Origin: an uncultured Flavobacteriales bacterium
Lineage (GTDB): Bacteria > Bacteroidota > Bacteroidia > Flavobacteriales_F > PHOS-HE28
Length of the DNA stretch: 64,000 nucleotides
Direction of reading: 5' to 3'
NCBI GenBank assembly: GCA_963706125.1
Contig: CAVPLQ010000002.1
Location: 208,254 to 272,253 of the forward strand
In this document: positions 6,971 to 23,821 of the stretch, piece by piece
How positions within the stretch are numbered: position 1 is the first letter of the stretch
Layout of the letters: each line of letters starts with the position of its first letter
Position numbers and translations under genes: made by a program
Notes under the pieces: model-generated
Seen by the model: only the letters and a program-made list of their open reading frames with translations
Databases searched by the model: none
Told to the model about the DNA's origin: nothing

Positions 6971-7060
6971 GAGCCAACTCACCCCGCGTAGTGCCACACT
7001 GAAGTGCTAGGACTTGATCACGAACCATTGATCATGGGGTGGCATATTACCTTTCCAGCG

Positions 7061-7537
7061 ATGAACGAACAGGACGAACGCTTTCTGCGCATGGCCATTG
7101 AGGCCTCACGCGCAGGCATGGAACGCGGGGATGGCGGCCCCTTCGGCTGCGTGGTGGTGAAGGACGGGCAAGTTGTGGGCACTGGGAACAACCGTGTCAC
7201 CAGCACCAACGACCCTACCGCCCATGCCGAAGTGGTGGCGATCCGTGACGCCTGCAAGAATCTCGGCGATTTTCAACTCACCGGCTGCGTGCTCTACACC
7301 AGTTGCGAACCTTGTCCCATGTGTCTCGGCGCGATCTACTGGGCGCGGCCGGACCGCATCGTGTTCGCCGCCACGCGTACGGACGCAGCCGAGGTGGGCT
7401 TTGACGACCAGCTGATCTACGACGAGTTGCCATTGCCGATCTCCGAGCGGCGTATTCCCACCCAGCAGGCCCTGCGGAATGAGGGCGTGGACGTCTTCAA
7501 GGCATGGGCGAAGTTGGCGGACAAGGTGCGTTACTGA
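7061..7537 (+). CDS. Nucleoside deaminase (guanine deaminase GuaD-like, cytidine deaminase fold)
   Basis: GGPFG, DPTAHAE, CEPCPMCLGAIYWA Zn motifs and GFDD; ATG 7061 chosen. Confidence 0.88.
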   Translation: MNEQDERFLRMAIEASRAGMERGDGGPFGCVVVKDGQVVGTGNNRVTSTNDPTAHAEVVAIRDACKNLGDFQLTGCVLYTSCEPCPMCLGAIYWARPDRIVFAATRTDAAEVGFDDQLIYDELPLPISERRIPTQQALRNEGVDVFKAWAKLADKVRY

Positions 7538-7572
7538 CCTTCTTGGGTTTGTCGGAGTCCTGAACCGTTCGG

Positions 7573-8412
7573 ATGAACTACAGGGTGGTGCTACTTGCAG
7601 GGCTGATGGCGTTGAGCGCCTCCGTGCGCATTTTTTCCCGGTACCATCGGCGAAAATTGACACCCGCTCAACGGCGCGTGATGACCACCTATGCCACTTA
7701 CTACGGGCGCTTGGATGCCGCCTCTAAGACCAGCTTTGAGCGGATCGTGGCCGACTTCGTGAACGGGAAGGAATGGCGAGGCTCGGGCATCACCGTGATG
7801 GACGAGATGAAGGTGATGATCGGTTCATGCGCAGCACAGCTGCTCCATGGTTTTCCTGAAGTGCGTTTGCGGCATTTCAAACACATTGCCGTAACGGCCG
7901 GCCCCTATCGCTCCGAGCGGAACGGTCGGCTGCACCTCGGCGAAGTGCGCCCCGGACCGGGCGTGATCCTCATATCCTGGAGCGACTTTGTAAAAGGCTA
8001 TACCGATCCGCGGAACGCCTACAACGTCGGGCTGCATGAGTTCGCGCACGCGCTGTGGTTCGAGAACGCCATAGAGAACGGTGAAGACGATTTCCTGGAT
8101 GGCGTAATGCTGCGGAAGTGGAATGCGCAGGCCCTGACGGAGATCTCCCGGATCAACGGGGAGAACGCTCACTTCTTTCGAAAATACGCCGGTTCCAATG
8201 CTGCGGAGTTCTTCGCCGTGGCCGTGGAGTATTTCTTCGAGCAGCCCAAAGCATTCAAGGTGGCATTGCCGGAATTGTACGGCACGCTCAGCGGTTTGCT
8301 TCGGCAGGACCCTGCGGATCTTCGATCGGAGGAACTGAGCGGCACGCCTCCATTCCGGGAAGCTGGCCCGGCATCCATCAGGGCCCAATTCGTGAGACCC
8401 TGTTGGAGCTGA
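7573..8412 (+). CDS. Zinc-dependent peptidase, MtfA/M90 family
   Basis: NVGLHEFAHAL (HExxH), YAGSNAAEFFAVAVEYFFEQP; N-terminal hydrophobic segment. Confidence 0.82.
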   Translation: MNYRVVLLAGLMALSASVRIFSRYHRRKLTPAQRRVMTTYATYYGRLDAASKTSFERIVADFVNGKEWRGSGITVMDEMKVMIGSCAAQLLHGFPEVRLRHFKHIAVTAGPYRSERNGRLHLGEVRPGPGVILISWSDFVKGYTDPRNAYNVGLHEFAHALWFENAIENGEDDFLDGVMLRKWNAQALTEISRINGENAHFFRKYAGSNAAEFFAVAVEYFFEQPKAFKVALPELYGTLSGLLRQDPADLRSEELSGTPPFREAGPASIRAQFVRPCWS

Positions 8413-8421
8413 TCTCCCCCG

Positions 8422-10584
8422 CTACAACTTCACGCTCACCTTTTCCGAATAGGGTGAATCCTCTCCGTGCGGATCGACCACCTGGATGAAGTACTGGTAT
8501 TCCGCACCTTGTTTAATGAGCGTATCGTGCCAGGTTCGTTGGTCGTTCCCCAGCATCTTCACGCGGTCGAAGGTGCCGCGGTCGTTGGAGCGCATCACCA
8601 CGAACAGCACGGCCTCTCGTTGGTCATACTCCCATTCCAGGTCCACGGTCTTCTGCCCGGCATTGTAACGGGCCTTCAATTTTTTCACGGTGGGCGTTCC
8701 GACCCGGCTCATCAACCGCAGCTTGAAACTGTTGGCCATGGGGCTCCACAGGCCGTCATCGTCGCGCGCCAAAACCGCATATTCGAATCGTCCTCCGTTG
8801 CCTTTGTCCTTCTCCACATACGTCGAATACAGTTCCGTCGCTGGCTCGTAGCGCTGGATGGTGTCCCAAGCGGACTCGCCCACCGGCCTGCGCAGCAACA
8901 CTTGCAACGCTACGTCCGCACTGCTGCTGTTGGCCCATTTGATCCAGATCCCTTGCTCGTCCACCTTGTAATCCACCAGCAAAGGGGAGACGGGTGCGTG
9001 CAGGTCCGGTCGCTTCAATTTCAGCTGTTGACTGGGCTTGCTGTTGTTCTTCACCACGTCCAACGCCACCACTTGATAGTACACATCCTCGGTAATGGTA
9101 GCCATCGTGATGGTGTCCGTAAAGGTGGTGTCGCGCACCGGGTAAGGCGTGATGCGCGCGCCCACATCGGTGGCGCCGTTGCGCAGGAACACGTAGTAGC
9201 CGTACAGGTCCACTTCCTTGCCGCGCTGCCAGTTCAAGGTGACCACCCCGTTCGTGTCCACCTTTCCCGTTAGCTCCGTAGGGGCGGCGGGTGCCACGCT
9301 GTCATTGATGGCGCCCCATGCGCCTATGCTGAGCCCGGTGTTCCCCGCCGTGTCCACCGCGACCACCAAGTAGTAATTGTGCGCATGTACCACCGGGTGT
9401 TTGTCCACGAATTTGCGCGTGCTTTTCGGTAGCGGTTTTTCGTTCAGCAGAACATGCTCGTCGCCGAACTCGTTGTTGGTACGCACCACATGGAAGCCCT
9501 TTAGGTCGGGCACGGTGTCGGTGTATGCCCAGGTCACCGTAAGCTCGTTCGCCACTTCCTCGGCCACGCGCACTGTGTTGGGTGAAGGCGGTGCGGTGGC
9601 ATCACGCGCCATGGCCTTTACGGTGTTGCTTGCCGGGCTTTCCATGCCGAAGGACGTGATGCCGACGACGCGGTAGGTCTGCGGCAAGTACATCCGGTCC
9701 ACACTGTCCGTGTAGGTAATGGAGTTCATGGTGCTGGGCAATTCCGCGTTGGTGAATGCGATAAAGGGCAGCTTGTTGCGCCGGGTGAACGTCCTGCCGC
9801 CGTCCGAGGAGCGCTCGACCCAGTAGGCCGTAAAAAGCTGATCGTGTTTCGCACGGTCCCAAGAGATCGAAATGGTGCGCTCCGCCCCTTTCGCCGCACG
9901 AATTTCGGGCCGTGGTATCACTTCCGCGCTGTCGGTGGAAACGAAGGCATAAGCGGTATCGATGGGATAGTTGCCGCTCTTGCTGTCCACCGAAATGCGA
10001 TACATGTAGCTGTGACCTTTCACGATATTCTTGTCCGCCAAGCCAAGCGCGCTGCCTACGGCGGCGGGCCAGCTCAGGTCTGCGGCGAGCAGGGCCAGGC
10101 CCATGCGCTCCTTCAGTTGCGCCGCCGCTTCCACCATGTCGGGGTTGAAGCCCACGTTCTCTGGCAGCAGGGCGGAATGGATCATCTCCCCTGCCATCAA
10201 GCCGTAGTTGTCATCCGGATATTCCTCGTGGTAGGCCCGCCAGCCGGGGATGCTCAAGGGCTTCAACACTTCCTGCGTCATCGGGGTGAACTTGGCAGAG
10301 GTATCGATGGCCTCATCGGTGAGCACGCCGAGGTCCAACCGTTCCACGCGGTAGCCCAGCAGGTTGGCGTTCATCCAGCCGCCGGGCGCATCGGGCAGCC
10401 AACGTAGGCGCACTTGCGTACCATCAAAGAATGCGGACGCTTCCAGGTGGGCGAAGAAATTCTCCTTCGCCGTCCGGTACTCCTTGTCCTGCTGGATCAT
10501 TTGCAGGCTGTCCAAATGCTGGGCCGAGGCGCTCAACGGCGCCAGGCTAATGAGGGCCAGTGCCCGAATAAGCAGGTGCTTCAT
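8422..10584 (-). CDS. Exported fibronectin type III repeat protein (720 aa)
   Basis: Signal peptide (SASA/Q); several FN3-like units (W...Y/F.V.R...Y.D...Y.V.A.D..N.S); no T9SS CTD. Confidence 0.85.
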   Translation of the reverse strand: MKHLLIRALALISLAPLSASAQHLDSLQMIQQDKEYRTAKENFFAHLEASAFFDGTQVRLRWLPDAPGGWMNANLLGYRVERLDLGVLTDEAIDTSAKFTPMTQEVLKPLSIPGWRAYHEEYPDDNYGLMAGEMIHSALLPENVGFNPDMVEAAAQLKERMGLALLAADLSWPAAVGSALGLADKNIVKGHSYMYRISVDSKSGNYPIDTAYAFVSTDSAEVIPRPEIRAAKGAERTISISWDRAKHDQLFTAYWVERSSDGGRTFTRRNKLPFIAFTNAELPSTMNSITYTDSVDRMYLPQTYRVVGITSFGMESPASNTVKAMARDATAPPSPNTVRVAEEVANELTVTWAYTDTVPDLKGFHVVRTNNEFGDEHVLLNEKPLPKSTRKFVDKHPVVHAHNYYLVVAVDTAGNTGLSIGAWGAINDSVAPAAPTELTGKVDTNGVVTLNWQRGKEVDLYGYYVFLRNGATDVGARITPYPVRDTTFTDTITMATITEDVYYQVVALDVVKNNSKPSQQLKLKRPDLHAPVSPLLVDYKVDEQGIWIKWANSSSADVALQVLLRRPVGESAWDTIQRYEPATELYSTYVEKDKGNGGRFEYAVLARDDDGLWSPMANSFKLRLMSRVGTPTVKKLKARYNAGQKTVDLEWEYDQREAVLFVVMRSNDRGTFDRVKMLGNDQRTWHDTLIKQGAEYQYFIQVVDPHGEDSPYSEKVSVKL

Positions 10585-13500
10585 GGCGTAGGGTGAAGGG
10601 TTTGGTTGAACTGGTGTTCTGCGAACCGCTCACCGGGGAACGGAACCAGAACTTCACATGGTAGTTGTTGCTGTAGGTCCGCCCGAACTCATCGGGGGGC
10701 GGCATGTTGTCGCTGTGCAGCAATTGCGTCGTTTGCGGCGATACGAAGTAGGCCACGCTGCGCATGGAGACGTACCTGTTCTGCGGACCATATATCTGGA
10801 GCAGCTGCTCCAGGGTCTTCGGAATAAGGGGGGCCATCTTGGTGGTGTGCAAGGCTTCACGTGTGGCATCCCGGGCCTCCATGAAATCGCGCCAAGCCAA
10901 CCTGCCCGCCAGGAACGTGAGGTTCAAATTGCGCGGGGGAGCGCTATTGATCCCGGAGAACGGGCTGCTGCCGAACGGGCTGCTGCCACCGAACAAACCG
11001 CCGAGGCCAGCCGAGGCCCCGCCACCCAAGAACGAGGAGCCCGTGGCCGTGGACGCGCCGGGGACGAACAAGGGTAGCCCGGTCGACAAGGACGGCTGCT
11101 GCACTGTTACCAGCGTGCCGCTCATTTCCGACGCGGCCAGCGGTGGTGCCGGGTAGCTGTAGTGGTCGAACACCGGCTCATCCGGATAGTGCAAGGTCCA
11201 GAGCAACCAATATGGCGCAGGCCAGCTCGGCACGGTGAGATGGATGTATGGAGGTATGAAGCTGCCCACATCGAACGTGTAATTCCGCGTACCTGAATAG
11301 CTGAGGTAGCCGCTGTACCTGACCGACAAGTAGTGGTAATAGTCATCCGAGAAAACCGGAGCGATCCGGACGAGCGGAGCCAGCTTCCGGCTGCCACCTT
11401 TCCACACCCCGTCGATATCGAAGTCATCGAACTTCTCTTCCATTTGTCCTTTCACATCGGCCAGGTCGTTGCCGCGCGTACTTGGCCAAGTGCCGTCCAG
11501 CTCCAAGGCGGCCAGCTTTTGGTGCAGCGTGTTGAACTTGCTGGTGCGGAAAGAGAAATTGTAGAGCTCATGGTCGTACTTGCCCATCTTCACCAGATCG
11601 GTCACCGTGGCACCGCCGTTCAACGTCATGGTCTCGCCAATGGAATTGCTGAGCGTGAGCTGGGTCGAGGCATCAGCAGTAATGCCAGGCAGCACAACGT
11701 TGGTGTTGCCCACTACGTCGGCCATGTGCTCCTGCATAGTGGGTGTCCGGCGTTTGAGCAGTTGGCACTCATAGGCGGTTTCGGGCTGTAGTGCAGGCAG
11801 GTCCAAGGGAAGCACTTGCCCACCGGTGTAGTTGATGGGCATTTCCAGGGGATCGCTACCGTCCAGCGGAATGTAGCGTGCCACGAAGGTGAAGGTCTCC
11901 CCTTCCACTTCGGTCTCGAAAAGCTGCGGCATTCCCATTGTCAGCTGCACCTTGCCCTTGTTGTTGCTTTCGCCGGGCAAAAAGTAGCGCTGGGCGTGTA
12001 CGGGATAGGTATAGTCCACCCGTTCGATCTCAATGTGGTCCGGCATATCGCCCGTTCTGAAGTTCGCATCCTTCTCCTCATACCAGAGGCTTCCGGTCTC
12101 CGGGTTGATGAAATCGATGCGGCTGCCCGGCGCGATCTCGTCCTTCACCTGCACGCGGACATGGATCTGATGGTCGGTTTGCCCGTCCAGCATGTTCTCG
12201 CGTTCAAGCGCGATCAGTGCGGTATTGCCGCCTACTATTTGCGGGGTGCCGGGGATCATGCTCCCGTTGTTCAGGTTCTTCAAGGTGTAGCTGCTCATGT
12301 ACGGGTAGAAGCGGTACATGATCATCTCGCCGGTCTCCGGATCGCTGCGCTTGGGCAGCTCCAACAATTGGTTCATGGGGAATTCGAGGGCGGCTTGTGG
12401 AAGGGCGAACACGCTCACGTCATTACCCACGGGTGCCAGCTCCCTGATGAACTTGATGTCCGCCAGCGGATCGCCTTTGATCATGAACAGGCAAGGCTGC
12501 CCTTTCTCCACTTGGAAGGATGCCGAACCACTGAACCGCCCACCGAGCACCGCATAGTTCACCGTTGCCTGCCCCTTGAATCCCATGGGGTTCGGGAGAT
12601 TGCCCTTCACCAGCATGGCTGCGGAGAGGTTGATGATCGGGAACCGGAATTTCTTGAAGATCAGGTTGAGCTGCACGCCCAGTTCGCCTTCCATGCCGCA
12701 GTAGAACTGGCCCTGTGCGAACCAGCGGTTCCTGCCGGGATCGGTGATCTCGTCATAACCCCTTTCCTCATCACCGGCGCACATCAAAGCACTGTTCAGT
12801 TTGCTCAAATTCACATCGAAGCCGAGGCCCATGTAAAACTTGGCGTAAATGATGGCCAGGCTCAGGTCCACGTCCACCTCGAACGTGGCCCCGAAGGCGA
12901 AGCCTGCACCGGTCGGCAAGGAGCTTGTCGTGCCCTCATCCCTGTCCCCGTTCAACACCGCATCGGTCTCCGCTTCGGTACCCAAGCGCCCTGCAGGATC
13001 GCCATTGAGGATGTTGAGTATGCGCTGCGGGGGCGGTGGCAATTGGGCCGGGATGCCCGAATTGCCCGTCATGATGTAAGTGGTAAGCGAAAGGTTCAAC
13101 CCGGGAATGCCCACCTTCAACTCTGCCGGCGCGCCGATGCTCTTGGGTTCGCCCATTTTGAAATACCAGTGTTCCGGGTCGAAATGCACCCGTGCGTCCA
13201 CCATTTTCTTATTGGCGTCCATGCCCCCATAAATGACCTCGAAGTCCGCCCAAAGCACGAAGGACCCGTCAAAGACCTTCCCCGCAGCGTTGTTCACGTA
13301 TGCCAAGGAAACGCTTGCGGTAAGTGGTGCATTTTCCCGTTGATCGATATCCGCCAAAGCATACAGGTCCCCATTGAACTCCATGCGCGAAATGCTGCCA
13401 TTGCTGAACTCCGCGATCAACTCCACGTCCAAGTTGTAGGTGGAATGGTTGCCTTGGCAGGCCAACACCACGCCGAGGCGTAGGCCGAGGTCCGTCGCAA

Positions 13501-16500
13501 AATGCTCCCGGAAATCCAGTCCGCTGTCCGCGACAGGGTTCGTCGCGGCACCCTCCTCTTCCGGTGGTGCCGTGGCGGCCATGCCTTGGACTTGTTCGGC
13601 GCCCGGCATGGTCTGCCCCGGGACCATCTCCATGTGGTACCACAAGCCGCCGCCGAAGCCGATCAGTTCCACACCGGTGAACAGCGTGAGGCCCGGCGTG
13701 AAATAGACCTGGCCGTCGATCAACCAGTAAGGATAGTTCTGCGCCGTGTTGAAAGGAGCGGAAGGGTTGGCCCGGCTCACCCCGAAGATGGACTTCAACT
13801 TGCCCTTAATGCCCATGGGCAGTCCTACGGCCAGCTCGCCGCGGAATTCCTTCTTGGTCGCTTCGTTGATCCAACTGATGCGCCCCTCCAACGTGATGCC
13901 GTTCAGGTCAGTTTCGATCAGGATATCGTTCACGGCGACGCGATCGAATGACACGCGGTCTATCCCGCTTTCGTTCGTGTTCACGTTCACGAAGAAGGTG
14001 ATCTCCGCTGCGGCCGCCAGGCTCACGCTCTCGCTGCCGAAGGTGAGCATGGGGGTAATGGACAGGCCGGGTTTTTGGACATCGCTGAGGTCAAGACCAA
14101 TGTCGGTGATGGTGAGCGGGAAGCCGCTCATGCTCTTGTCCGGGCTGGAAACGGAGAAGCAACTGTTGCATTCGTAACCGGTCTGCGTGTCGTACACCAG
14201 GTGTTCTATGTGAATGCCGGGCATACTTAAGCCATTGCCGGAGTCGCCGCCACCTTCCCCATCGGTAATGGCTAACGTGGCGTTGAGCTCCATGTGCAAT
14301 TTGGAAGTAGCACCGAGCCGCGCGCGGATCAAGGTGTTGGGCTTCAGTTCCACCTGGGCCACCCATGCGGGGAACGTGATGCCGTCATCCACGTTCACCT
14401 CCAAGGCCAAGCCCCATTCGGTGTCACCATCACCGTCATCGTCCTCCTGGCCGAACACCGCGAGGTAGTTCAAATAGTCGTGTTCCCCGGCAATGGGCAA
14501 GCCTACTTGGCCTTTCAATCCCGCGCCGCGGAAGGTGCTCTTCCAAATATCGATGTAGAGGCTGTCCATGGAGAAGGAACAGCCGTCCAGATTGCCCTCC
14601 CCCACGTTCACCAAGTTGGTCAAGGCCACGTTCATGGTAAGGCCCAGGTCGTCGATGATGAAGTTGTTCACCGAGGCCGTGAACGGCGCATCATCGGCGC
14701 CGGTGATCTCGGCAGGCGAGGCCATGGAAAGACGCTTCAGGAAGAAGCCTTCCCACAGGTTCACCGTGCTTGCACCGCCCGTTGCGGAAGGATGGCCGTA
14801 CCCGGTGGGGAACAGTATGGTGGGTGGATTGTTCACGGAGCTCAGGTCGATCCAGGCCTCCTCGATAGTGAACACCCAGCCGGGTGCACCGGTGGCTTCA
14901 AAGGGGTCCATGGTGAACTGTGCGAGAAAGTCCCAATCCGTGCAGACCTGCACCTTGAAATCCGCGCTCACCTGGGTTGTCGTGCCCTCCTCCGTTTCGC
15001 CGGCAGGCACGATGTTGTCCCGCGAGAACTTGATGCCCGCAGCGACCTGCAAGCACTTGAAGCCGTTGCAATCCCAGTCGAAATAGGTGAGGTTCGCAAG
15101 ATCCGTGGACGCTCCGCCCTTGAAGGAGAAGGTGTTCCCGTTGAAGGGTATATCGATGTTGCTGGCCAAGTAGGCGCGGCCCTCATCGCCCAGCCCGCCG
15201 GGCGTAAAGCACATGTCGCCCACGCCGAAGCTGAGCATGGTGGGCACCTCGGTGATCTCGATGCCCGCCACCATGTCCAAGTGTGCGCGCGTCGGGGTGA
15301 ACACCATGTTGATAATGCCCAGGATCACCTGCCTGCCGCCCACCTCACGGTCCATGCCGATGGGCAAGCTCATCGGGGAGCCACTGCTGGAAAGCAGGCT
15401 CACCAAGCGATGGCCGTCGATGAGATATCCGTTCATGGACACCGCATCGCTGGAGTCGATGGAGGGGATCTGCTGAGCCCCGCTGGTAACGGTAGTGAGC
15501 GACAGCGGCGTCCAATCCTTGCGCGCGGTCACCGTGCCGGCGAACATCTCGCCCGCATCGTTCACGCGCAGGCCGGTGAACTCCACTTTGATCTTCGCTT
15601 CGTTCAGAAAATCCACGGTGATATGGCCTTCCCCGGCGAAGGTGCCGCTGCCCGAAACGGTCTCGATCTCCATGTCGAACTGGCCGACTTTCACGGTAGC
15701 GCCCATGGCCAGCACACTTCGGGTGGTCGCAGTGCTGGGTGCGAGCACCTCGCATTCGGACACGCATTCGCCGGGCTCTTCGCCCTCCTCGTCCTCGCTC
15801 GCTGTTGTTCCCCCTTCGCCGATGATGAAGCGGAACACAGGGCTGGTGTTGTAGTTGGCGGAACTTTCATTCGTGGGGTCCACCTTCCAATGCAGGCGCC
15901 AGTAGTAGGTGCCCGTATCCGTGGCGTGTACCGAAGCATCGAGCTGCTTGTACATTTCGTTGCGGAAGGTGGTGGGATCCTCTATCGCGTTCACTAGGTC
16001 GAAACCGGAACCGCCGAGCGTACCGGTAGTGTCAAAAAGGATGGTCGCGAAGTCTGACGTTCTGCTCACCTCCAGTTTCCAGCGTTCGTTCACCCACCCG
16101 TTGATGAACGTGGTACCGGCCGCGCTCCTGGCCTGGACCACATTGTAAGGCGGTAGCAGGGGATCGGGAATGTCCGCCGTATTCCAGCGGAGCTGTACAT
16201 CACCCGTGTCCACCGAGGCACCATCCGCAGGAGAAAGCGGTTGCGAAGCACCCATACCGATCTGGAAGGGTTCTTCACCGGTATCGCCGTGGTAGGTGGA
16301 ACTGCCGAGGGTGAAATCGCCTGCGGTGCGCCAGTGATACTGTTCTCCCCGTCTGAAGGAATGCCCGCTCGGCATGGTCGCATTGTTGTAGTAGGTGGCC
16401 AGGTGCTGGGCCTCGTCCTCGGTCACGGTGAAGGTCACCGAGCTCTGCCCCGCGACAGGCCCTGAAGGCCAGTTATTGTCATCGGTCCGCGTCGGATAGG

Positions 16501-17533
16501 CCCCGGCCCCATCGGAATTCAAGGTGGTGGTCCAATCGAAATGCGTGTACTCCCGATATGGCTCGAACTTCAGGATGAGCGGCACAAAATCGAAGGGGTA
16601 CGCATTACCGCCCGCGGGCCACACCGGCCTCAAAATTCCGGTGCCACCGGTACTTTCAGGGGAGTATAGGAAGGAGCACACTATGCTATGGCCTTGGTTC
16701 ACTACCGGTAATGTTCCGTCCGGCGAGAAGGCTGTTACCCGCACCGCATAGCGGAATCCGGCGTCCAATTCCAATTCATCGGGGATCTCGATCTGGGCGG
16801 GCGCCTCATCATATTCCACGGTGAAGATGTTGGGCTCGGTGGCGCTCAGCATCGCATCGTTCGCATCGCCTTCGCGGCCATCGGCGGGTTCGATCTTCAC
16901 GATCTCCAAGCGATAGTCGATCTCATGCTCGAATCCGATCGGGGGCATGTAGGTCCAAGAGATGGTAAGGATGCCGTCGGGCAGGGTGTATTCCCTGTCG
17001 CAGATATCCGTGAGCTCAGGCGGGTACAGGGTCGGAACAAAGAAGGTCACACAACCTTGGGGAACGGGTCCGGAAAGCGCATCATCGCCCGGACAGGAAA
17101 GCAGTTGTATGCATAGTTCCCATGATGGGCCGGGAAGTTGTTGATCGCTTTCGATCTGCGATGCGGAAATGCCTTCAAAACTGAACAAGTCCGCATCAAA
17201 CCCCCCACCACTGCTGAACATCGGAGCAAGTTCTTCCACTGCGAACATGTTGGGGCCTGCGGGTATGTGAAAACACGGCTGCGTGCCGACCGCATCCAGC
17301 GACCGGATCACAATGCCTGCGTCCGCATTGCGAAGCACCACGCGGGCGCGGACATCGGTTGCCGCCCCCGAATTCTCGATGTTCACGAACGCATTGGCCG
17401 TAGCGTCGGCGAGTTCCGCGTAGGTATAGGGCGGCGGGAGTGGCGTGCTGGGGCTCACCGTCATTTGGTACTGGGCAGCCGCGCCCATGGCCATGGCAAG
17501 AAATGCTGCCGAAAGAATGTGCCGTGCGTTCAT
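10547..17533 (-). CDS. Giant exported beta-rich protein (2328 aa) with TANFOR-like N-terminus; function unknown
   Basis: Signal peptide (GAAA/Q); PPPY...LP...WELC...LS...GC...PP N-terminal pattern, Ig/FN3-like domains, long amphipathic beta-strand region; ATGA overlap with upstream barrel gene. Confidence 0.8.
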   Translation of the reverse strand: MNARHILSAAFLAMAMGAAAQYQMTVSPSTPLPPPYTYAELADATANAFVNIENSGAATDVRARVVLRNADAGIVIRSLDAVGTQPCFHIPAGPNMFAVEELAPMFSSGGGFDADLFSFEGISASQIESDQQLPGPSWELCIQLLSCPGDDALSGPVPQGCVTFFVPTLYPPELTDICDREYTLPDGILTISWTYMPPIGFEHEIDYRLEIVKIEPADGREGDANDAMLSATEPNIFTVEYDEAPAQIEIPDELELDAGFRYAVRVTAFSPDGTLPVVNQGHSIVCSFLYSPESTGGTGILRPVWPAGGNAYPFDFVPLILKFEPYREYTHFDWTTTLNSDGAGAYPTRTDDNNWPSGPVAGQSSVTFTVTEDEAQHLATYYNNATMPSGHSFRRGEQYHWRTAGDFTLGSSTYHGDTGEEPFQIGMGASQPLSPADGASVDTGDVQLRWNTADIPDPLLPPYNVVQARSAAGTTFINGWVNERWKLEVSRTSDFATILFDTTGTLGGSGFDLVNAIEDPTTFRNEMYKQLDASVHATDTGTYYWRLHWKVDPTNESSANYNTSPVFRFIIGEGGTTASEDEEGEEPGECVSECEVLAPSTATTRSVLAMGATVKVGQFDMEIETVSGSGTFAGEGHITVDFLNEAKIKVEFTGLRVNDAGEMFAGTVTARKDWTPLSLTTVTSGAQQIPSIDSSDAVSMNGYLIDGHRLVSLLSSSGSPMSLPIGMDREVGGRQVILGIINMVFTPTRAHLDMVAGIEITEVPTMLSFGVGDMCFTPGGLGDEGRAYLASNIDIPFNGNTFSFKGGASTDLANLTYFDWDCNGFKCLQVAAGIKFSRDNIVPAGETEEGTTTQVSADFKVQVCTDWDFLAQFTMDPFEATGAPGWVFTIEEAWIDLSSVNNPPTILFPTGYGHPSATGGASTVNLWEGFFLKRLSMASPAEITGADDAPFTASVNNFIIDDLGLTMNVALTNLVNVGEGNLDGCSFSMDSLYIDIWKSTFRGAGLKGQVGLPIAGEHDYLNYLAVFGQEDDDGDGDTEWGLALEVNVDDGITFPAWVAQVELKPNTLIRARLGATSKLHMELNATLAITDGEGGGDSGNGLSMPGIHIEHLVYDTQTGYECNSCFSVSSPDKSMSGFPLTITDIGLDLSDVQKPGLSITPMLTFGSESVSLAAAAEITFFVNVNTNESGIDRVSFDRVAVNDILIETDLNGITLEGRISWINEATKKEFRGELAVGLPMGIKGKLKSIFGVSRANPSAPFNTAQNYPYWLIDGQVYFTPGLTLFTGVELIGFGGGLWYHMEMVPGQTMPGAEQVQGMAATAPPEEEGAATNPVADSGLDFREHFATDLGLRLGVVLACQGNHSTYNLDVELIAEFSNGSISRMEFNGDLYALADIDQRENAPLTASVSLAYVNNAAGKVFDGSFVLWADFEVIYGGMDANKKMVDARVHFDPEHWYFKMGEPKSIGAPAELKVGIPGLNLSLTTYIMTGNSGIPAQLPPPPQRILNILNGDPAGRLGTEAETDAVLNGDRDEGTTSSLPTGAGFAFGATFEVDVDLSLAIIYAKFYMGLGFDVNLSKLNSALMCAGDEERGYDEITDPGRNRWFAQGQFYCGMEGELGVQLNLIFKKFRFPIINLSAAMLVKGNLPNPMGFKGQATVNYAVLGGRFSGSASFQVEKGQPCLFMIKGDPLADIKFIRELAPVGNDVSVFALPQAALEFPMNQLLELPKRSDPETGEMIMYRFYPYMSSYTLKNLNNGSMIPGTPQIVGGNTALIALERENMLDGQTDHQIHVRVQVKDEIAPGSRIDFINPETGSLWYEEKDANFRTGDMPDHIEIERVDYTYPVHAQRYFLPGESNNKGKVQLTMGMPQLFETEVEGETFTFVARYIPLDGSDPLEMPINYTGGQVLPLDLPALQPETAYECQLLKRRTPTMQEHMADVVGNTNVVLPGITADASTQLTLSNSIGETMTLNGGATVTDLVKMGKYDHELYNFSFRTSKFNTLHQKLAALELDGTWPSTRGNDLADVKGQMEEKFDDFDIDGVWKGGSRKLAPLVRIAPVFSDDYYHYLSVRYSGYLSYSGTRNYTFDVGSFIPPYIHLTVPSWPAPYWLLWTLHYPDEPVFDHYSYPAPPLAASEMSGTLVTVQQPSLSTGLPLFVPGASTATGSSFLGGGASAGLGGLFGGSSPFGSSPFSGINSAPPRNLNLTFLAGRLAWRDFMEARDATREALHTTKMAPLIPKTLEQLLQIYGPQNRYVSMRSVAYFVSPQTTQLLHSDNMPPPDEFGRTYSNNYHVKFWFRSPVSGSQNTSSTKPFTLRHEAPAYSGTGPH

Positions 17534-19263
17534 TTTCCGGTGGTCTTTATGGTCATGCCCTTCTTCTTGGGCCGAAGGGTGAGGCTGTACGTGAGCTGCC
17601 CGCGCACCTGATACTGGCCCAGGTCCTGCGTTGTGCTCACTTTGCGCGTGTTGTAGTTGAAGGAAAGCCCGAGCGTATGGTCAGTGCCGATCTTGCGGTC
17701 CACCCCCGCCGTGGCGATCAATGAAACGCTCGGCGCGGTTTGGTCACTGCGGTTGAAATAGAAGGCGAACCGGCCGCTCACCCCCATTTTGTCGTTGAAG
17801 AAGCCCTTCCTTCCGTTCAAGGAAAGCCCGTACTTGTTGCGCTGCGCTCCGGCCAGCTCGAAGTGGGTGTAAGTGGCACGTGCGCCCAGCGTGGTGTTGC
17901 GCTCCTTCAAGCGGTGCCGGTAGCCGATGCTCCCTGTATAGGTGCTGGTCTTCTGCGCTTCCGTCCCCTGCCCCTCGTTCACGTACTGCTGAAAGCTGAT
18001 GGTGGCACTTACACTGCGCGTGTTCTTCTTGTCCACGTCGCGGAAGCGGAGACTTTGGTTGAGGGTGGCGTTGTGCGAGACCTGCGCTAAGTGGATGGTA
18101 TCGGTCTCCGCTGCGCTGAATACGCTGCGCATGTCGGCCTCGAAATTGGAATAGCTCAACATGGCGGAATAGGTCTTGCCGCTGTTGTACTGCACGCTGG
18201 CGGAGCCGATGGTGCGCCTGGTGCGGTAGCTGTTCACCTTGGCCAGGTCGTTGTGCTGGATGCCCATGGAAAGCATGGTGCGCAACTTCTGCTTGAATGC
18301 GCCGAACGCCACGGAGCCCCGGTAGTTGGCCACATCGCTCAAGAAGTAGTAGTTGCCCAGCGTCTCGAAGAGCGGGCTGATGCGGTCGTACTTCGCGCTG
18401 ATCACCATGCCGCGCAGGTTGTAGCTGAGGCCGCTCTTTATGGCCGTGCCACGCCGTGAGCGAGGATCGAGGTTGAACAGGAACGTGTCGAAGTTGTTCG
18501 CCACATCAACGCCGTCCCCGGTGCGGGAGCCGGGGACGGCGCCTTCATTCAGCAGGCTTAGCGCCGCATCCACTTGCAGTTGCAGGCCTTTGGCAAGCTG
18601 CATCCCCGCATCGATGCCGACCACCAGATTTTCCTTGGGCTGAACGGTGCCGTAGTAGCCTTCCTTCAGCTCCCCGACATCGAAAGCGTCCTTGGCTTGG
18701 AACAGGATCAGGTCCAGATGATCTCTTCGCGTACCGAAGCCGATGCGCGCGGCCATGGCACGGCGGTCGAACGAGGGTTCGACATACGTGCCGTCCGTGG
18801 TATCGGCGAAGACCTCCTTGCGCAACTTCCCGTACATCGCCGCGAAGCGGAACTTGCCCGGATCCAGTTCCACGCCCGCGCCAAAGAAGCGTTGGCCGCT
18901 CATGGTTAGTTCACTGAAGTGCATGCTACGGTGCCCGAGGTGCGCCTTGAACCATTTATACTTGGGACTGAGGCCATATTGGTTGAAGGGCTGCCGGAAA
19001 TCGCGTTCCTTCTCGCTGAGCACGAACGAAAAAGGGATCTGGAGCTGGTAGATGCTGAAATTGACGCGGCCACTGAGCCCCCAGGTGAACGGCACTTGCC
19101 GGGGATCCGTCCGGTCCGTGGCGTAGAAACCGGTGTATGCCGAAAGGCCGCCGCTCCATTGCACTGCGGGTCCTTGGCCCAGTTGGCCGAGGTCCTGCGC
19201 CATGCCGCACACCCCCATGAACAGGGAGCAGGATGTCGCAATATGCTTCTTCAGGGCGGGCAT
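17530..19263 (-). CDS. Uncharacterised outer-membrane beta-barrel protein (577 aa)
   Basis: Signal peptide, alternating aromatic/hydrophobic strands throughout, QPFNQYGLSPKYKW...FSELTMSG..FFGAGVEL, final strand GQLTYSL. Confidence 0.78.
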   Translation of the reverse strand: MPALKKHIATSCSLFMGVCGMAQDLGQLGQGPAVQWSGGLSAYTGFYATDRTDPRQVPFTWGLSGRVNFSIYQLQIPFSFVLSEKERDFRQPFNQYGLSPKYKWFKAHLGHRSMHFSELTMSGQRFFGAGVELDPGKFRFAAMYGKLRKEVFADTTDGTYVEPSFDRRAMAARIGFGTRRDHLDLILFQAKDAFDVGELKEGYYGTVQPKENLVVGIDAGMQLAKGLQLQVDAALSLLNEGAVPGSRTGDGVDVANNFDTFLFNLDPRSRRGTAIKSGLSYNLRGMVISAKYDRISPLFETLGNYYFLSDVANYRGSVAFGAFKQKLRTMLSMGIQHNDLAKVNSYRTRRTIGSASVQYNSGKTYSAMLSYSNFEADMRSVFSAAETDTIHLAQVSHNATLNQSLRFRDVDKKNTRSVSATISFQQYVNEGQGTEAQKTSTYTGSIGYRHRLKERNTTLGARATYTHFELAGAQRNKYGLSLNGRKGFFNDKMGVSGRFAFYFNRSDQTAPSVSLIATAGVDRKIGTDHTLGLSFNYNTRKVSTTQDLGQYQVRGQLTYSLTLRPKKKGMTIKTTGK

Positions 19264-19315
19264 GTATATCCGTCAGGTTAAAAATGCGCACACCTACGAT
19301 GGGAGCAACACGCTA

Positions 19316-19344
19316 TCGAGCAGTTGGCATAGTGGAATGAGCGA
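19316..19344 (-). promoter_or_regulatory. Candidate LytTR-binding direct repeat upstream of the barrel operon
   Basis: Minus strand TCGCTCAT and CTGCTCGA at 21-nt period, the typical LytTR box spacing; LytTR gene adjacent. Confidence 0.35.
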
Positions 19345-19477
19345 TCGGCAAAACCGATGGCACCAGCATCCAAAAAGAAGCGGCGACGCCATTGGCTCCG
19401 CCGCTCAGTTCCAAGGGATCAGCAGGGTCAACGCGAGTGCCCGGAGAGTGCTGCTGCCGGGGTGATCCGTTCAGGCT

Positions 19478-20233
19478 CTACCCACCCTGTCCCAGCGCGC
19501 TCAACAGGTCGTCTTTCTTGGCCCGTGATACGGGCACTTGCTTCGCCCCTGCCAGCACAACATACCCGCCCGAGCCGCGCACGTACTTCTCGATCTTGCC
19601 CAAGGCCACCACATGCGATTGATGGATGCGCATGAAATCCTTCGCGGGCAGTTCCTTCTCCACGTCCTTCAAGGTGCGCGAAACCAGGATGCGGCGCCCG
19701 TCGCTGAGATGCAGCTTGGTGTAGTTGTCATCGGCCTCGGCATGTACGATCAATGCCATGTCCACCATTTCCAGGCCTTCACGCGTGGGGATGGCGAGCC
19801 TGTACGATGTGCCGGGGCCGCCGGTGACTTTCCGCAACAGATCATCAATGCGGTCCATCATGCCTTCACGTTGCTTGCTCCCCACTTTGGCCACCGCAGC
19901 GATCAGTTCATCCTTATCCACGGGCTTCAACAAGTAATCCAACGCACTGTGCTTGATCGCCCGTATGGCGAACTCATCGTAGGCGGTAGTGAACACGACA
20001 TCACACTTCAAGTCCCCCAGGGCGAGCAACAGGTCGAAGGCGTTCAACACGGGCATCTCGATGTCAAGGAAAATGACATCGGGCGCGTTGTTCTGCAGGT
20101 ACTTCAGCGCCTGCGCCGGTTCATTGAACACTTGCTGCACGGCAACTTGCGGGCAGTACTGCTCCAACAACCAGCTGAGCATGTCGGTACAATGTTCCTC
20201 ATCATCTATGAGGACGGCGGTGATCTGCTCCAT
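19478..20233 (-). CDS. LytTR-family DNA-binding response regulator
   Basis: REC motifs IDDE, FLDIEMP, FTTAYDEFA, DYLLKP; LytTR motifs SRTLKDVE, FMRIHQSHVV, VPVSR. Confidence 0.93.
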   Translation of the reverse strand: MEQITAVLIDDEEHCTDMLSWLLEQYCPQVAVQQVFNEPAQALKYLQNNAPDVIFLDIEMPVLNAFDLLLALGDLKCDVVFTTAYDEFAIRAIKHSALDYLLKPVDKDELIAAVAKVGSKQREGMMDRIDDLLRKVTGGPGTSYRLAIPTREGLEMVDMALIVHAEADDNYTKLHLSDGRRILVSRTLKDVEKELPAKDFMRIHQSHVVALGKIEKYVRGSGGYVVLAGAKQVPVSRAKKDDLLSALGQGG

Positions 20234-23200
20234 TACGTGGTCGTTGTTTTATGCATGCTGATGATCACCTTGGTGCCGCAGGGCTTTTGGGCCGCGTCGT
20301 ACAGGTCGATGATCCTTACTTCCGTGTTCAAGTTGAACATGCTGCGCGCCAGTTGCATCCGGTCGCTCGTTATGCGCATGCCCATGCTTCGCTTGTGTGT
20401 TGCCGACTTGCTCTTCAACTCCGCCGATCTCTTGCGGCCCACCCCGTTGTCCTCGATCTCGAAAAGCAGGATGCCCGCGTTCCGGGAAACGCGCAGGGAC
20501 AGTTTCCCACCGCCCCCCTTGCGATGCATCAGGCCGTGCCAGATGGCGTTCTCCACATAGGGCTGCAGAAGCAACGGCGGGATCAAGACCTGTTCGATGT
20601 CATCCTCCACTTCCACGCGGGACTCGAAGGTGAAGCGGTCCTTGAAACGCAACGCTTCCATTTCCACGTAGAGCTTCAGTGCTTCCAGTTCGTCCTTCAA
20701 ACTGACCTGCTGCTTCTCCGAATTCTGCAGCACCGATCGCATGAGCCGGGAGAACTTGGTGAGGTATTCCGACGCCACGCGCGGTTCGTTGTGGACGATG
20801 TACCGATTGATGGAGTTCAATGAATTGAACAAAAAATGCGGGTTCATCTGTGCCCGCAACGCGTTCATCTCCACCTCGGCGATGCGCTTGTTCAGGTCGA
20901 TGCGCAGACGCTCCTTACCCCGCATGATGCCCAAACGCCACTGCGCAAAGGCCCCCACCACTGCGACCAACATCAGCACCACCAATAGCCTGAACCACCA
21001 GGTCTGCCAATAGGCCGGGGCGATCAGGATGTTCAGGCCCGACACTTCCGACCACTGACCATGCAGTTCCTGCTCCACCACGAACCGGTACGTGCCAGGT
21101 GGCAGGCCGGTATACACCGCCGTGCCCTCGGCCCCGGTGGGGATGGGCGGCAGGTCCAGGCCTTCCAAGCGGTGCTGCAGCAGTATCCTTCCGCGGAGGC
21201 TGGTGGAGATCGCGCCGTAATCGATGCGGAGGAAATTCTGGTCGTGCGGCAGTTCCAGGGCATGCAGCATGGCGGGCACGGTATCAGTATCCCAAAGTGT
21301 GCCGTTCACCTTAATGTCCTTGAGGAAGACGTGGGCCGGGGCGGTCAGTTCCGGGATGTTCTTCGGGTCTATGAAAAGCACCTCGCCCAGGTCATAGACC
21401 ACGGTGATCAGGCCGCTGGGGTGCTGCCGGATGTCCGCATGATGGAATTTGGCCTGCCGCAATCCCTCATGCCGGTCCAAACGGCGCACGGACAGGTCCT
21501 TGCCGCTGATGCGGTACAGCCCCGACGGGCCGGCGGCCCAAGCATCATCTTCCGCATCGATGAAAACGGAGGTGATCTTGGATGAGATCCCCTCGCGTGC
21601 CGCGAGCTGCACGGTGCCAGCACCCCCGGGGTCTTGCGCCGGGGTAATGATGATACCCTCCCCGTTGGTGGCGATCCACAAGCGGTCCCTGCCATCAATG
21701 GCCAGATCCCAGACTTTCCGCGTAGGCAACCACGTCAAGCTGTCGGCAAGGAAATGGTCGATCCGCATACGATCGGCACTGATGCGGATCAAGCCGGCAT
21801 CCTGTGCGCTCACCCAGATGCGGTGATCGCGGTCTTCCGCGATGCCCATGGGCCAGGTACCGGACAAGCGCCGGCCCTCCGGGCCTTTTCCGTCGATCCG
21901 TTCCATGAAGCCGGTACGCGGGTCCCAATGGTACAGCCCTCGGTGCTGGCTGCCGATCCATATCTCTCCCCGGTGATCTTCCAGAAAGCCCAGCTGATAC
22001 ATCCCGCCGTACCGTTGAAAAACACTTTCGTACGCCCGCTCGGCCTCCAACGTGACCGGATCCACCTTGAACAGGCCCTGGCTGGTGAATGCGATCGTGC
22101 CGTGATCACGGGTGCGCTCAATGCCCCTGATCTCAAGCTTGTGCAACTTCCGGACCTCACCGGTGCGCCGGAGCCTGAGCACTTCCGGCCGATCGAAAAT
22201 GAGCCCCCCCTCGCCCAGTGCGGTACCGATGAAGTACCGGTCGCCCAATTCCACGATCCCGTTGACGATCGGTCTGGGATTCGGATAGCCGGCCGGGTTC
22301 GCAATGGGGAGTGTCCGCAGGGTGTTCTTGGCGGGATCAAGGACCGATAATCCCAGTTCGGTGCCGATCCAGGTAACGCCGTTGCGGTCGGTCATCACCA
22401 GCGTCACCCGACCGGGCGCCAACGAATGGGGATCATCGGGGTCATGCTTGATAATGTCGGTGATGCCCTGCCCGGGCTCCAGGGTCACCACACCCTCTTC
22501 CGATGCTACGAGGTAGCGGGTCGGCGAGGCCGCGCAAATGGTCAGAAAAATGTTCTTGCTACCGTTCGTGGGCGGTTTGCCGTCAATGGTATGCACGCGC
22601 CAAACCGGGTCGCCAGGAGCAGCTTCCCAAAGCCCGCCGCCCCATGAGCAAAGCCAAACGGTCCCATGCTCGTCCTGATGAACATCGTGGAAGATCCAAT
22701 GCTCCTTGTCCCTGTATGGTCGCTCCGGCAGGTCGTGGGGCAAGTACTTGCAGGTGCGCAGGTCCAACAGCTGTATCCGGTCTTCGATCAGCACCCACGC
22801 CTTGTTGCTGTCCGTAGCTGTAGGCTTGATACGCTTGGCACCGCGGATGGTGCGGATACCGTCCTCTCCGATCACCGTCGTCCTTTTGCGGGAAGGTTCG
22901 AACAGGACCACGCCCAAGCTGTTACACCCGACAAAAATGGAGTCGCTGGTGTAACACAGGACCTCCGCCGTGGCTAAGCCGCGGGTAGGGTCTGGCGTGC
23001 CTGTAAGTTCCTCCCAGGTCAGGAATTCATCTTTCCAAGGGTCATACCGGGCCAGCTTCCCGTTCGTGGAAGAGAACCAGATATACCCGTCAGGCGCTTG
23101 CGCCATTTGGTCCACGTCATCATGGGGCAACGAGGTGCTATCCTGCGGATCGTAGTGGTATTGCTTGAACTCGTTGCCATCGAAGCGGTTCAACCCGTCC

Positions 23201-23355
23201 TCGGTGGCGATCCACATAAAACCTTGCCGGTCCTGCATCATGGAAGCGATGCTCTGGTTGCTCAGACCGTCACTGGTGCCATAGTTCGTGAAGAACTGTG
23301 CATGCAGGCACAAGCCCGCCACCAACCCGCATATTGTAAGCACGTTCCTGCACAC
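20233..23355 (-). CDS. LytS/YehU-type sensor histidine kinase with periplasmic beta-propeller and Y_Y_Y domain
   Basis: DRQGFMWIATEDGLNRFDG propeller repeats, YTGLPPGTYRF, TM WQTWWFR, ALRAQMNPHFLFNSLNSI, QPYVENAIWHG, EDNGVG. Confidence 0.92.
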   Translation of the reverse strand: MCRNVLTICGLVAGLCLHAQFFTNYGTSDGLSNQSIASMMQDRQGFMWIATEDGLNRFDGNEFKQYHYDPQDSTSLPHDDVDQMAQAPDGYIWFSSTNGKLARYDPWKDEFLTWEELTGTPDPTRGLATAEVLCYTSDSIFVGCNSLGVVLFEPSRKRTTVIGEDGIRTIRGAKRIKPTATDSNKAWVLIEDRIQLLDLRTCKYLPHDLPERPYRDKEHWIFHDVHQDEHGTVWLCSWGGGLWEAAPGDPVWRVHTIDGKPPTNGSKNIFLTICAASPTRYLVASEEGVVTLEPGQGITDIIKHDPDDPHSLAPGRVTLVMTDRNGVTWIGTELGLSVLDPAKNTLRTLPIANPAGYPNPRPIVNGIVELGDRYFIGTALGEGGLIFDRPEVLRLRRTGEVRKLHKLEIRGIERTRDHGTIAFTSQGLFKVDPVTLEAERAYESVFQRYGGMYQLGFLEDHRGEIWIGSQHRGLYHWDPRTGFMERIDGKGPEGRRLSGTWPMGIAEDRDHRIWVSAQDAGLIRISADRMRIDHFLADSLTWLPTRKVWDLAIDGRDRLWIATNGEGIIITPAQDPGGAGTVQLAAREGISSKITSVFIDAEDDAWAAGPSGLYRISGKDLSVRRLDRHEGLRQAKFHHADIRQHPSGLITVVYDLGEVLFIDPKNIPELTAPAHVFLKDIKVNGTLWDTDTVPAMLHALELPHDQNFLRIDYGAISTSLRGRILLQHRLEGLDLPPIPTGAEGTAVYTGLPPGTYRFVVEQELHGQWSEVSGLNILIAPAYWQTWWFRLLVVLMLVAVVGAFAQWRLGIMRGKERLRIDLNKRIAEVEMNALRAQMNPHFLFNSLNSINRYIVHNEPRVASEYLTKFSRLMRSVLQNSEKQQVSLKDELEALKLYVEMEALRFKDRFTFESRVEVEDDIEQVLIPPLLLQPYVENAIWHGLMHRKGGGGKLSLRVSRNAGILLFEIEDNGVGRKRSAELKSKSATHKRSMGMRITSDRMQLARSMFNLNTEVRIIDLYDAAQKPCGTKVIISMHKTTTT

Positions 23356-23615
23356 GCTGCAAGTTGGGGCATCAGCGGCAGAAGTACATCACCGATCGAG
23401 GGATGGCACGTGCTTATTGAGGCATTGGCAAGGCGGGCACCGGAAATTGTCCGGACGCAGGCCGTATTGACATTGTATTTGGTCCCTGGCAGCGTCGCGC
23501 TCCGCTCGAGATCGATCTTCCCGCCCGGTCGGTCCAACAAAAAACTGCTTTCCCGGGCGTTCGTGGTCATGCCCCCAACTTGCCGAGCTGGAAGCTCGAC
23601 GGACATTGCACAGCG

Positions 23616-23764
23616 AAAAACCCCGCTCTCGCGGGGCTTCCTTTGTTGGCCGACCAGGGCTTCCCGCATATATGCTTCGCTCCGCGCGGGATAAACTTCT
23701 CACCCCGCCCATCCAACAAAAAACCCCGCTCTCGCGGGGCTTCCTTTGTTGGCCGACCAGGGCT
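23616..23764. repeat. 46-bp direct repeat of tRNA-Gln 3' end plus terminator (23616-23661 and 23719-23764)
   Basis: aaaaaccccgctctcgcggggcttcctttgttggccgaccagggct occurs twice, 103 nt apart. Confidence 0.9.
23719..23740 (-). terminator. Terminator of tRNA-Gln (duplicated at 23616-23637)
   Basis: Minus strand gccccgc-gaga-gcggggt followed by T run. Confidence 0.75.
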
Positions 23765-23821
23765 CGAACCTGGACTCTTCTGAACCAAAATCAGACGTGT
23801 TGCCAGTTACACCATCGGCCA
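23749..23821 (-). tRNA. tRNA-Gln(TTG)
   Basis: Reverse complement folds as cloverleaf: TGGCCGA/TCGGCCA acceptor, TCTGA-TT-TTG-GT-TCAGA anticodon arm, GGTTCGAGCC T-arm; CCA not encoded. Confidence 0.95.

Follow-up and report, generated by a model that had tools for sequence, protein, structure and literature searches.

A conserved barrel-giant-FN3 gene module in Bacteroidota and its possible role in placing TANFOR-type proteins at the cell surface

Systems for two-partner secretion (TPS) and for the contact-dependent inhibition of growth (CDI), TpsB-TpsA and CdiB-CdiA-CdiI, combine an Omp85 outer-membrane barrel with POTRA domains and a substrate that carries a Haemagg_act TPS domain. In the LapA/LapE system, a giant adhesin handled by type I secretion has an N-terminal retention module that is plugged in a TolC-like outer-membrane pore. 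[quoted passage not shown] Jana, Salomon and Bosis (2020; PMC7073777) describe TANFOR as the N-terminal domain of polymorphic toxins of Bacteroidetes; their main text, in which the words ‘barrel’ and ‘porin’ never occur, reports that Fn3, SprB and C-terminal-domain genes are enriched near TANFOR genes and puts forward the hypothesis that TANFOR proteins are exported by the T9SS. Here we analyse a 64,000-nt stretch of DNA (the window, to whose positions coordinates refer) from an uncultured Flavobacteriales bacterium, in which five open reading frames (ORFs), all on the minus strand, occupy positions 8422-23355 and encode a sensor histidine kinase, a LytTR regulator, a candidate beta-barrel (P0003), a giant protein (P0004) and an FN3 protein (P0005). 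On balance, we lean towards the view that the barrel candidate is an outer-membrane protein dedicated to the N-terminal domain (N-domain) of the giant, as its docking, export or anchor partner, in an arrangement that resembles two-partner secretion but is built from unrelated parts, with the FN3 protein as a conserved accessory. The operon of these last three genes may be a route by which TANFOR proteins, some of them toxins, are placed on or outside the cell.

An earlier note on this DNA had described five co-oriented genes with overlapping ends, and the ORF list and a reading of the junctions bear this out: the kinase stop and regulator start overlap by 1 nt (TAATG), the barrel and giant genes overlap by 4 nt (ATGA), and the end of the giant gene overlaps the start of the FN3 gene by 38 nt (Table 1). 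The signal peptides that it had assigned to the three structural proteins can also be seen in the translations, each of which, read by eye, opens with a typical signal peptide ending A-Q. Searches of Pfam and NCBIfam found no C-terminal domain (CTD) of T9SS cargo, whether type A (Por_Secre_tail) or type B (CHU_C, TIGR04131), in P0003, P0004 or P0005, while identical searches did detect CHU_C in three other window proteins; the three structural genes therefore differ from those of the window's other large secreted proteins, as had been claimed.

The conserved unit consists of three genes (barrel, giant and FN3), not five. A barrel-profile search of contigs from one genome per species gave at least 578 confirmed loci, and synteny was counted in the best 80, which by their record titles come from Flavobacteriales, Cytophagales, Chitinophagales, Sphingobacteriales and Bacteroidales. 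Cultivable carriers named in such titles include Spirosoma, Dyadobacter, Runella limosa, Larkinella, Fibrella, Mucilaginibacter, Pseudopedobacter and Flavobacterium lutivivi. The giant gene lies directly after the barrel gene in 75 of the 77 loci with at least 600 nt of downstream sequence, the two exceptions being a split barrel ORF and a contig with only 611 nt downstream, and the FN3 gene follows the giant gene in 54 of the 57 loci with at least 9 kb downstream. The commonest spacing between barrel and giant genes is again the 4-nt ATGA overlap. The source genome itself holds a second, paralogous set about 67 kb away on the same contig, with the same order of kinase, LytTR regulator, barrel, giant and FN3 genes; its regulator and barrel are 40% and 36% identical to those of the first set, and its kinase is 34% identical over the C-terminal 600 aa. 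Since the order recurs in 75/77 and 54/57 loci and in a paralogous five-gene copy, the arrangement is far beyond chance. That barrel/FN3/TANFOR clusters recur in Bacteroidota had been stated earlier, correctly as it turns out, given their wide co-occurrence, constant gene order and coupled starts. The FN3 gene of the paralogous set is frameshifted in the assembly near L005 5154-5176, relative to orthologues of ~520 aa, and is either a pseudogene or an assembly error.

The order of a barrel gene followed by a giant gene is shared with two-partner secretion and CDI systems, as is a conserved N-terminal recognition module on variable giants; some members of the family also end in toxins, with small immunity-like ORFs next to them. 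The parts, however, differ. Pfam detected no Omp85/ShlB, POTRA or Haemagg_act TPS domain in P0003, P0004 or 33 aligned barrel-family members, no separate periplasmic domain was detected in the barrel, which has ~550 residues, an FN3 protein is conserved as a third component, and the hosts are Bacteroidota.

The link between N-domain and barrel extends beyond adjacency. In a sample of 401 Bacteroidota genomes from 180 genera, the barrel profile matched 101 genomes (E<=1e-10) in 64 genera and the N-domain profile matched 76 genomes (E<=1e-8). Genomes with a near-full N-domain match were also positive for the barrel family in 66 out of 67 cases, against a background of 101/401, and the six genomes matched by the TANFOR model TIGR02542 (E<=1e-4) were all barrel-positive. 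Among the 98 near-full N-domain matches listed for these 67 genomes, 53 are directly downstream of a barrel gene and another 27 are on the same strand as a barrel and no more than 20 kb from it; 18 are found elsewhere, and no match lies close to a barrel on the opposite strand.

In three genomes of one family, the N-domain and the barrel form a single ORF of 947-1031 aa, with the N-domain N-terminal and the barrel C-terminal. In all three, a separate N-domain giant with a P0004-type body follows the fusion ORF; an FN3 protein comes after this giant in two of them (L093 and L094), and the third stretch ends before that position. A different family has the two as neighbours: the gene for an N-domain protein of 960-1015 aa lies immediately upstream of one for a barrel of 650-693 aa. 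The existence of both fusions and rearranged but still adjacent variants argues for a physical partnership between N-domain and barrel. The private pairing of barrel and giant that the earlier note had proposed is strengthened by the fusions in three genomes and by the 66/67 co-occurrence.

Judged by its sequence features, P0003 is probably an outer-membrane beta-barrel, and would fit insertion through BAM, the machinery for beta-barrel assembly. It shows the generic marks of such proteins, namely a signal peptide (read by eye), amphipathic strands and, in its family, a C-terminal aromatic beta-signal. A C-terminal F in a motif of the Y-x-Y-x-F type is found in 20 of the 33 aligned family members; the paralogous barrel ends in ..VDIRF, and P0003 itself has a 14-residue basic tail beyond its last strand. 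By a strict rule, amphipathic segments with an alternating pattern number 15 in P0003 (residues 72 to 563), compared with 4.3 +/- 1.8 (maximum 9) in 500 column shuffles, and a count by eye gave ~24-28 such segments. The mature protein is basic and free of Cys, and a crude propensity method assigned it zero helix. The ESM Atlas model of a 58%-identical homologue has a pTM of 0.76 and a pLDDT of 0.78, and its structural neighbours are in-family hypotheticals only. In a mean-field direct-coupling analysis of 349 barrel sequences (effective number 252), artefacts from gaps and blocks dominated, and hairpin ladders were weak and confined to the C-terminal half.

The barrel family is large and unnamed. 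At E<=1e-3, it comprises 3634 representatives of 50%-identity clusters, a number that falls to 1792 at E<=1e-30, and all of the 120 matches listed were ‘hypothetical’ or unnamed, none with a Pfam domain. P0003 has no Pfam or NCBIfam match; Pfam at E<=1 on the 33 aligned members returned noise only, with no Omp85/ShlB, POTRA, Usher or PorP/SprF, and a profile search of the PDB with the family gave no match at E<=10. Two candidate identities were rejected: DUF5723, taken from an automatic Atlas cluster name, had no match at the barrel loci of the genome, and PorP/SprF (PF11751) had no Pfam match and scored 0.4% probability when the barrel profile was compared by hhalign with the three PorP/SprF proteins of the window.

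An invariant barrel motif, R-Q-P-F-N-Q-[FY]-G-x-S-P-x-Y-K-W, lies at residues ~89-104 (18960-19000) and superficially resembles the N-terminal Q-x-F-x-Q-x-x-F-N-x-x-x-x-N-P-x-Y of PorP/SprF (31140-31200), in spite of the negative whole-profile comparison (0.4%); the likeness may be due to chance or to a short binding motif in common. Distant relatives of 745-909 aa, common in other Bacteroidota families, were also seen (L086 2015-4744, L089 660-3134, L090 1158-3395 and L091 1177-3573), with the barrel part and its aromatic end motif at the C-terminus and an N-terminal extension of 200-400 aa that matched nothing in Pfam, NCBIfam or the N-domain profile.

In the giant, the N-terminal ~290 residues are the sole region that aligns across all barrel-linked giants. 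Within this module, the signal peptide is followed by a TANFOR-like domain that has diverged and by an FN3-like one, with P134, C141, C161, W193 and Y262 invariant; in relatives, fn3 Pfam matches fall at about residues 190-360, and FN3-type PDB matches to the N-domain are weak. P0004 had been called TANFOR-like, a description that suits its syntenic relatives better than the protein itself. When aligned N-domains of syntenic giants were compared with TIGR02542, 24 out of 32 matched at E<=0.01 (best 9.5e-39), but P0004 had no match at that threshold, where membership of the TANFOR class is defined by a match at or above the 67-bit cut-off near the N-terminus. A scan of the whole source genome with the same model gave only an E of 5.2, in the paralogous giant. 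By transitive homology, P0004 is classed as a divergent TANFOR relative on the strength of its alignment with the paralogous giant (E 2e-11, residues 1-289). These two barrel-adjacent giants are all the N-domain giants that the N-domain profile finds in the source genome.

Behind the N-module, the giants diverge. The paralogous giant, of 1912 aa, is similar to P0004 over the first 290 residues (27%, E 2e-11) and nowhere else, and the two body types, for which hhalign gave a best probability of 1.4%, are unrelated. The body of P0004 is acidic (pI 4.5) and has 20 Cys; no repeats, known domain, toxin domain or T9SS C-terminal domain were found in it. P0004 has neither a Pfam nor an NCBIfam match, Pfam at E<=10 on four P0004-type giants returned nothing real, and PDB profile searches gave nothing significant for the giants (best E 0.49) or the N-domain (best E 0.046). 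Across 50 barrel-adjacent giants, the last 350 residues have nothing in common (12% mean column identity), and none of the 50 matches any Pfam family over this region. On these comparisons, a conserved N-module on unrelated bodies has the look of a trafficking or docking domain. A folded N-terminal module that stays at a pore and anchors a giant surface protein recalls LapA/LapE, as an idea only; that system works with type I secretion and a TolC-like pore, and homology is not expected.

The P0004 clade shares with the TANFOR toxins of PMC7073777, as its main text presents them, very large proteins that start with a Sec signal and a TANFOR-type N-terminal domain, an enriched Fn3-domain gene nearby and T9SS cargo genes in the neighbourhood, and relatives found here have C-terminal DNase or deaminase domains and small downstream ORFs. 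P0004 itself departs from that class: it lies below TIGR02542, it has a conserved C-terminus and no toxin domain, and its next gene encodes the FN3 protein, not an immunity-like one. The upstream barrel family and its near-obligate linkage are likewise not in that main text. Because orthologues of P0004 are conserved from end to end (36-48% identical across the full length, C-terminus included), this clade is not polymorphic at its C-terminal end. The P0004-type giant is not a polymorphic toxin and is most likely an adhesin or surface structure.

Toxin-bearing relatives do exist among seven N-domain proteins that are not encoded directly after a barrel gene, some of which are orphans and some of which lie within ~10 kb of a barrel. 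Two of the seven have a recognised C-terminal toxin domain, an XOO_2897-like deaminase in one and a colicin/pyocin DNase (3.9e-41) in the other, and the genomes that encode these two have a barrel operon elsewhere. A 150-164-aa ORF comes next after four of the seven. The toxin-bearing relatives match the polymorphic-toxin class as described in the main text of PMC7073777. In L100 (827-12707, plus strand), two TANFOR-type proteins were observed in tandem. A 160-aa ORF comes after the protein of 1023 aa, and the other, of 1726 aa, has a C-terminal colicin/pyocin DNase; a truncated 336-aa barrel fragment (profile positions 7-292) comes after the tandem.

These relatives bear on whether the giant leaves the periplasm at all. 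It could instead be part of an envelope-internal structure, tethered through its N-domain to the periplasmic face of the barrel as a tether, scaffold or TamB-like bridge, with the FN3 protein as a spacer. The N-terminal end of an outer-membrane protein normally faces the periplasm, which is where the N-domain of the fusions would then usually lie, and the conserved, non-toxic bodies of barrel-adjacent giants suit such a structure. We nevertheless regard it as improbable: the same N-domain is found on relatives whose C-termini are DNase or deaminase toxins and whose neighbours are immunity-like, which is sensible only outside the producer, unrelated bodies in different giant types would be odd for a housekeeping scaffold, the distribution is patchy (64/180 genera), and Pfam found no AsmA/TamB signature in the proteins of the locus or in P0004-type giants.

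A role for the T9SS has to be considered as the main rival to a dedicated barrel route. According to this alternative, the T9SS exports the giant, as proposed for TANFOR proteins in PMC7073777, and the barrel is an outer-membrane adaptor or anchor with a role like that of PorP/SprF or PorV. It stands because SprA_N is present in 101 out of 101 barrel-positive genomes of the 401 sampled, and because the sole T9SS-less family in the sample lacks the system (barrel 0/87, N-domain 0/87); the same co-occurrence is little informative, since the T9SS is near-universal elsewhere (312/314 genomes outside that family). The window is also rich in type B cargo and PorP/SprF genes, in keeping with the enrichment of SprB and C-terminal domains near TANFOR genes in the main text of PMC7073777. 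What makes us think this alternative unlikely is that P0003-P0005 lack a type A or B CTD and 0/50 giant C-termini match Pfam, that the conserved element is N-terminal and T9SS signals are C-terminal, and that the barrel family scores only 0.4% against the PorP/SprF proteins of the window. The same contrast appears within the window. Its SprB/SprF-type pairs, several of them adjoining, resemble the barrel module in that a giant surface protein goes with the gene of a dedicated small outer-membrane protein, but their signal is a C-terminal CHU_C and their partner is a 300-aa PorP/SprF encoded downstream, whereas in the barrel module the signal-like element is N-terminal and the partner is an unrelated 577-aa protein encoded upstream.

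The third gene of the core encodes a protein with approximately six FN3-like domains, the first of which bears an insertion. A PDB profile search with it gave nothing significant (best E 0.41). Compared along its whole length with the FN3 proteins that accompany the distant fused-barrel variants, it shows 30% identity. Across variants, its conservation equals or exceeds that of the barrel, which suggests a conserved accessory of the machinery rather than cargo. The chaperone-usher pathway offers a parallel in its large outer-membrane barrel and secreted sandwich protein of the Ig-like or FN3-like type, in the beta-sandwich nature of the substrate's own N-module, and in the conceivable use of strand complementation. 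It differs in that neither Usher (PF00577) nor PapD-like chaperone matches were found and in that the substrate here is a single giant chain, not polymerising subunits.

In contrast to the three structural genes, the two-component system is a local regulatory add-on of a few lineages and stands outside the conserved module. The pair is of the LytS/LytTR type: the kinase has a signal peptide, periplasmic Reg_prop propeller repeats, a single membrane span and a LytS/YehU-type His_kinase domain (PF06580), and the adjoining gene encodes a receiver-LytTR regulator. Both genes occur upstream on the same strand in only four of the 66 loci with at least 5 kb upstream, and one of the two alone in two further loci; the pair accompanies both modules of the source genome and those of a few related metagenome-assembled genomes. 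Kinase and regulator were thus rejected as components of the conserved machine, and the earlier note's dedicated two-component system does not survive as a part of the module. Clustering of flanking ORFs recovered, besides the core, a single recurrent group, receiver-domain regulators (43/81 loci), and no additional family common to most loci.

In the window, a terminator-like hairpin with 13-nt arms (85% complementary) lies just past the regulator gene and is followed by a T-run on the minus strand (Table 1). Because this hairpin stands in a 214-nt gap, the two-component genes and the three structural genes are probably separate transcription units, and the regulated promoter of the barrel operon is presumed, from the sequence layout, to lie downstream of the hairpin within the gap. 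Direct repeats of the LytTR type were looked for between the regulator and barrel genes at five loci, and none was convincing. In the source genome and its few relatives, the propeller-sensor kinase and its regulator would probably turn the operon on upon sensing a periplasmic ligand.

Reg_prop sensors serve glycan-sensing systems of Bacteroidota. Their presence beside both modules of the genome therefore recalls a Sus-like uptake locus, in which the barrel would be a solute or nutrient channel and the giant and FN3 proteins surface binding or processing partners, all induced via the propeller kinase. We give this very little credence, since Pfam and NCBIfam detected no enzyme, carbohydrate-binding or SusC/SusD signature in the three structural proteins, the two-component system is missing from most loci, and N-domain-barrel fusions and toxin-bearing relatives are poorly compatible with uptake.

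If the barrel is the dedicated partner of the N-domain, as we favour, the system could work as follows. Going by the signal peptides read by eye, Sec would carry all three products over the inner membrane. The 577-aa protein would then enter the outer membrane as a large beta-barrel, to judge from the aromatic motif at the C-terminus and the alternation in hydrophobicity, and the N-terminal 290 residues of the giant would dock on it, as suggested by synteny, start/stop coupling, co-occurrence and natural fusions. By analogy with two-partner secretion, and with the toxin-ended relatives in mind, the barrel would either export the variable body or keep it at the cell surface; export would be needed because the nuclease and deaminase domains of relatives presumably act outside the cell. 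The FN3 protein would be an accessory, potentially a periplasmic chaperone or adaptor or a surface partner.

Several points weigh against this picture. That P0003 folds as a barrel, with a given number of strands and a lumen, is a prediction from sequence features, and comparisons with Omp85/TpsB, ushers and PorP/SprF revealed no relationship to the barrel profile. The exit of the giant from the periplasm is argued from analogy and from toxin-ended relatives. In the fusions, the N-domain stands at the N-terminus of the barrel and so could serve as a dock on the periplasmic side instead of a signal that is secreted. The TANFOR model does not match P0004 itself. With SprA_N in every barrel-positive genome and no barrel in the T9SS-less family, the T9SS may be involved, and the counts over the 401 genomes are not phylogenetically independent.

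A more far-reaching version, which we put forward only tentatively, is that the barrel family forms the translocon of an unrecognised, phylum-wide Bacteroidota pathway (barrel, TANFOR-type docking module and FN3 protein), free of the T9SS, that exports giants and TANFOR toxins and serves distant toxin genes in trans. A vesicle proteome table lists a TANFOR protein of T. forsythia, which is weak support for an envelope or surface location. PMC7073777 is the one paper devoted to TANFOR proteins that the literature searches turned up. In the literature searched, which included the main text of PMC7073777, we found no description of a dedicated barrel for TANFOR proteins, of the fusions or of the three-gene architecture. 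Relative to that literature, the TANFOR protein class is known, and the barrel family, the near-obligate linkage, the fusions and the three-gene architecture are new.

The analysis supplies a concrete candidate for a TANFOR export route in the form of an unannotated, probable outer-membrane family with thousands of 50%-identity clusters. If the proposal is true, it would add a secretion or display pathway to those of a phylum that matters in soil, water, wastewater and the gut, explain the enrichment of Fn3 near TANFOR genes and give names to two large ‘hypothetical’ families. If the barrel is merely a T9SS adaptor, it would still stand for a new class, in which cargo is recognised by an N-terminal module.

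Table 1. Coordinates of the features discussed; positions refer to the window except where a locus label precedes them.
Feature	Position	Strand	Match or basis
Sensor histidine kinase, 1040 aa	20233-23355	-	Reg_prop PF07494 4.7e-23; His_kinase PF06580 7.8e-25
Response regulator with LytTR DNA-binding domain, 251 aa	19478-20233	-	Response_reg PF00072 4.5e-18; LytTR PF04397 2.9e-17
Intergenic region between regulator and barrel, 214 nt	19264-19477	-	Hairpin at 19379-19405
Barrel candidate P0003, 577 aa	17530-19263	-	No Pfam, NCBIfam or PDB match
Giant P0004, N-terminal module, residues 1-290	16664-17533	-	Alignment across barrel-linked giants
Giant P0004, body	10547-16663	-	No recognised domain
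Giant gene P0004, whole, 2328 aa	10547-17533	-	ORF list
FN3 protein P0005, 720 aa, last operon gene	8422-10584	-	Weak fn3 Pfam matches
Fusion ORF, N-domain N-terminal, barrel C-terminal	L092 12636-15479	-	
Fusion ORF, N-domain N-terminal, barrel C-terminal	L093 9242-12337	-	
Fusion ORF, N-domain N-terminal, barrel C-terminal	L094 6924-9788	-	
Paralogous module	L005 (G000:C2:281000-300999), ORFs 3845-17174	-	ORFs and sequence comparison
OmpA/PD40/CarboxypepD_reg protein	28114-30309		Pfam
Three PorP/SprF genes	30309-31202; 39630-40568; 49925-50860		Pfam
CHU_C protein, 2788 aa	31233-39599		Pfam
Protein with 21 SprB repeats and CHU_C, 3123 aa	40572-49943		Pfam
CHU_C protein, 354 aa	50860-51924		Pfam

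Elsewhere in the window, positions 28114-51924 hold a run of T9SS type B cargo and cognate PorP/SprF genes, which agrees with the SprB and C-terminal-domain enrichment near TANFOR genes given in the main text of PMC7073777. Divergent from the kinase gene, a plus-strand ORF (23957-27331) encodes a protein of 1124 aa that has a TMEM260-like protein O-mannosyltransferase domain (6.6e-75) at its N-terminus. A tRNA-Gln gene (23748-23821, minus strand) lies upstream of the kinase gene, and ~45 nt comprising its 3′ end and the following terminator hairpin are repeated ~100 nt away, at 23615-23665. This partial repeat (23615-23821) looks like an attachment-site-type duplication or an integration scar.

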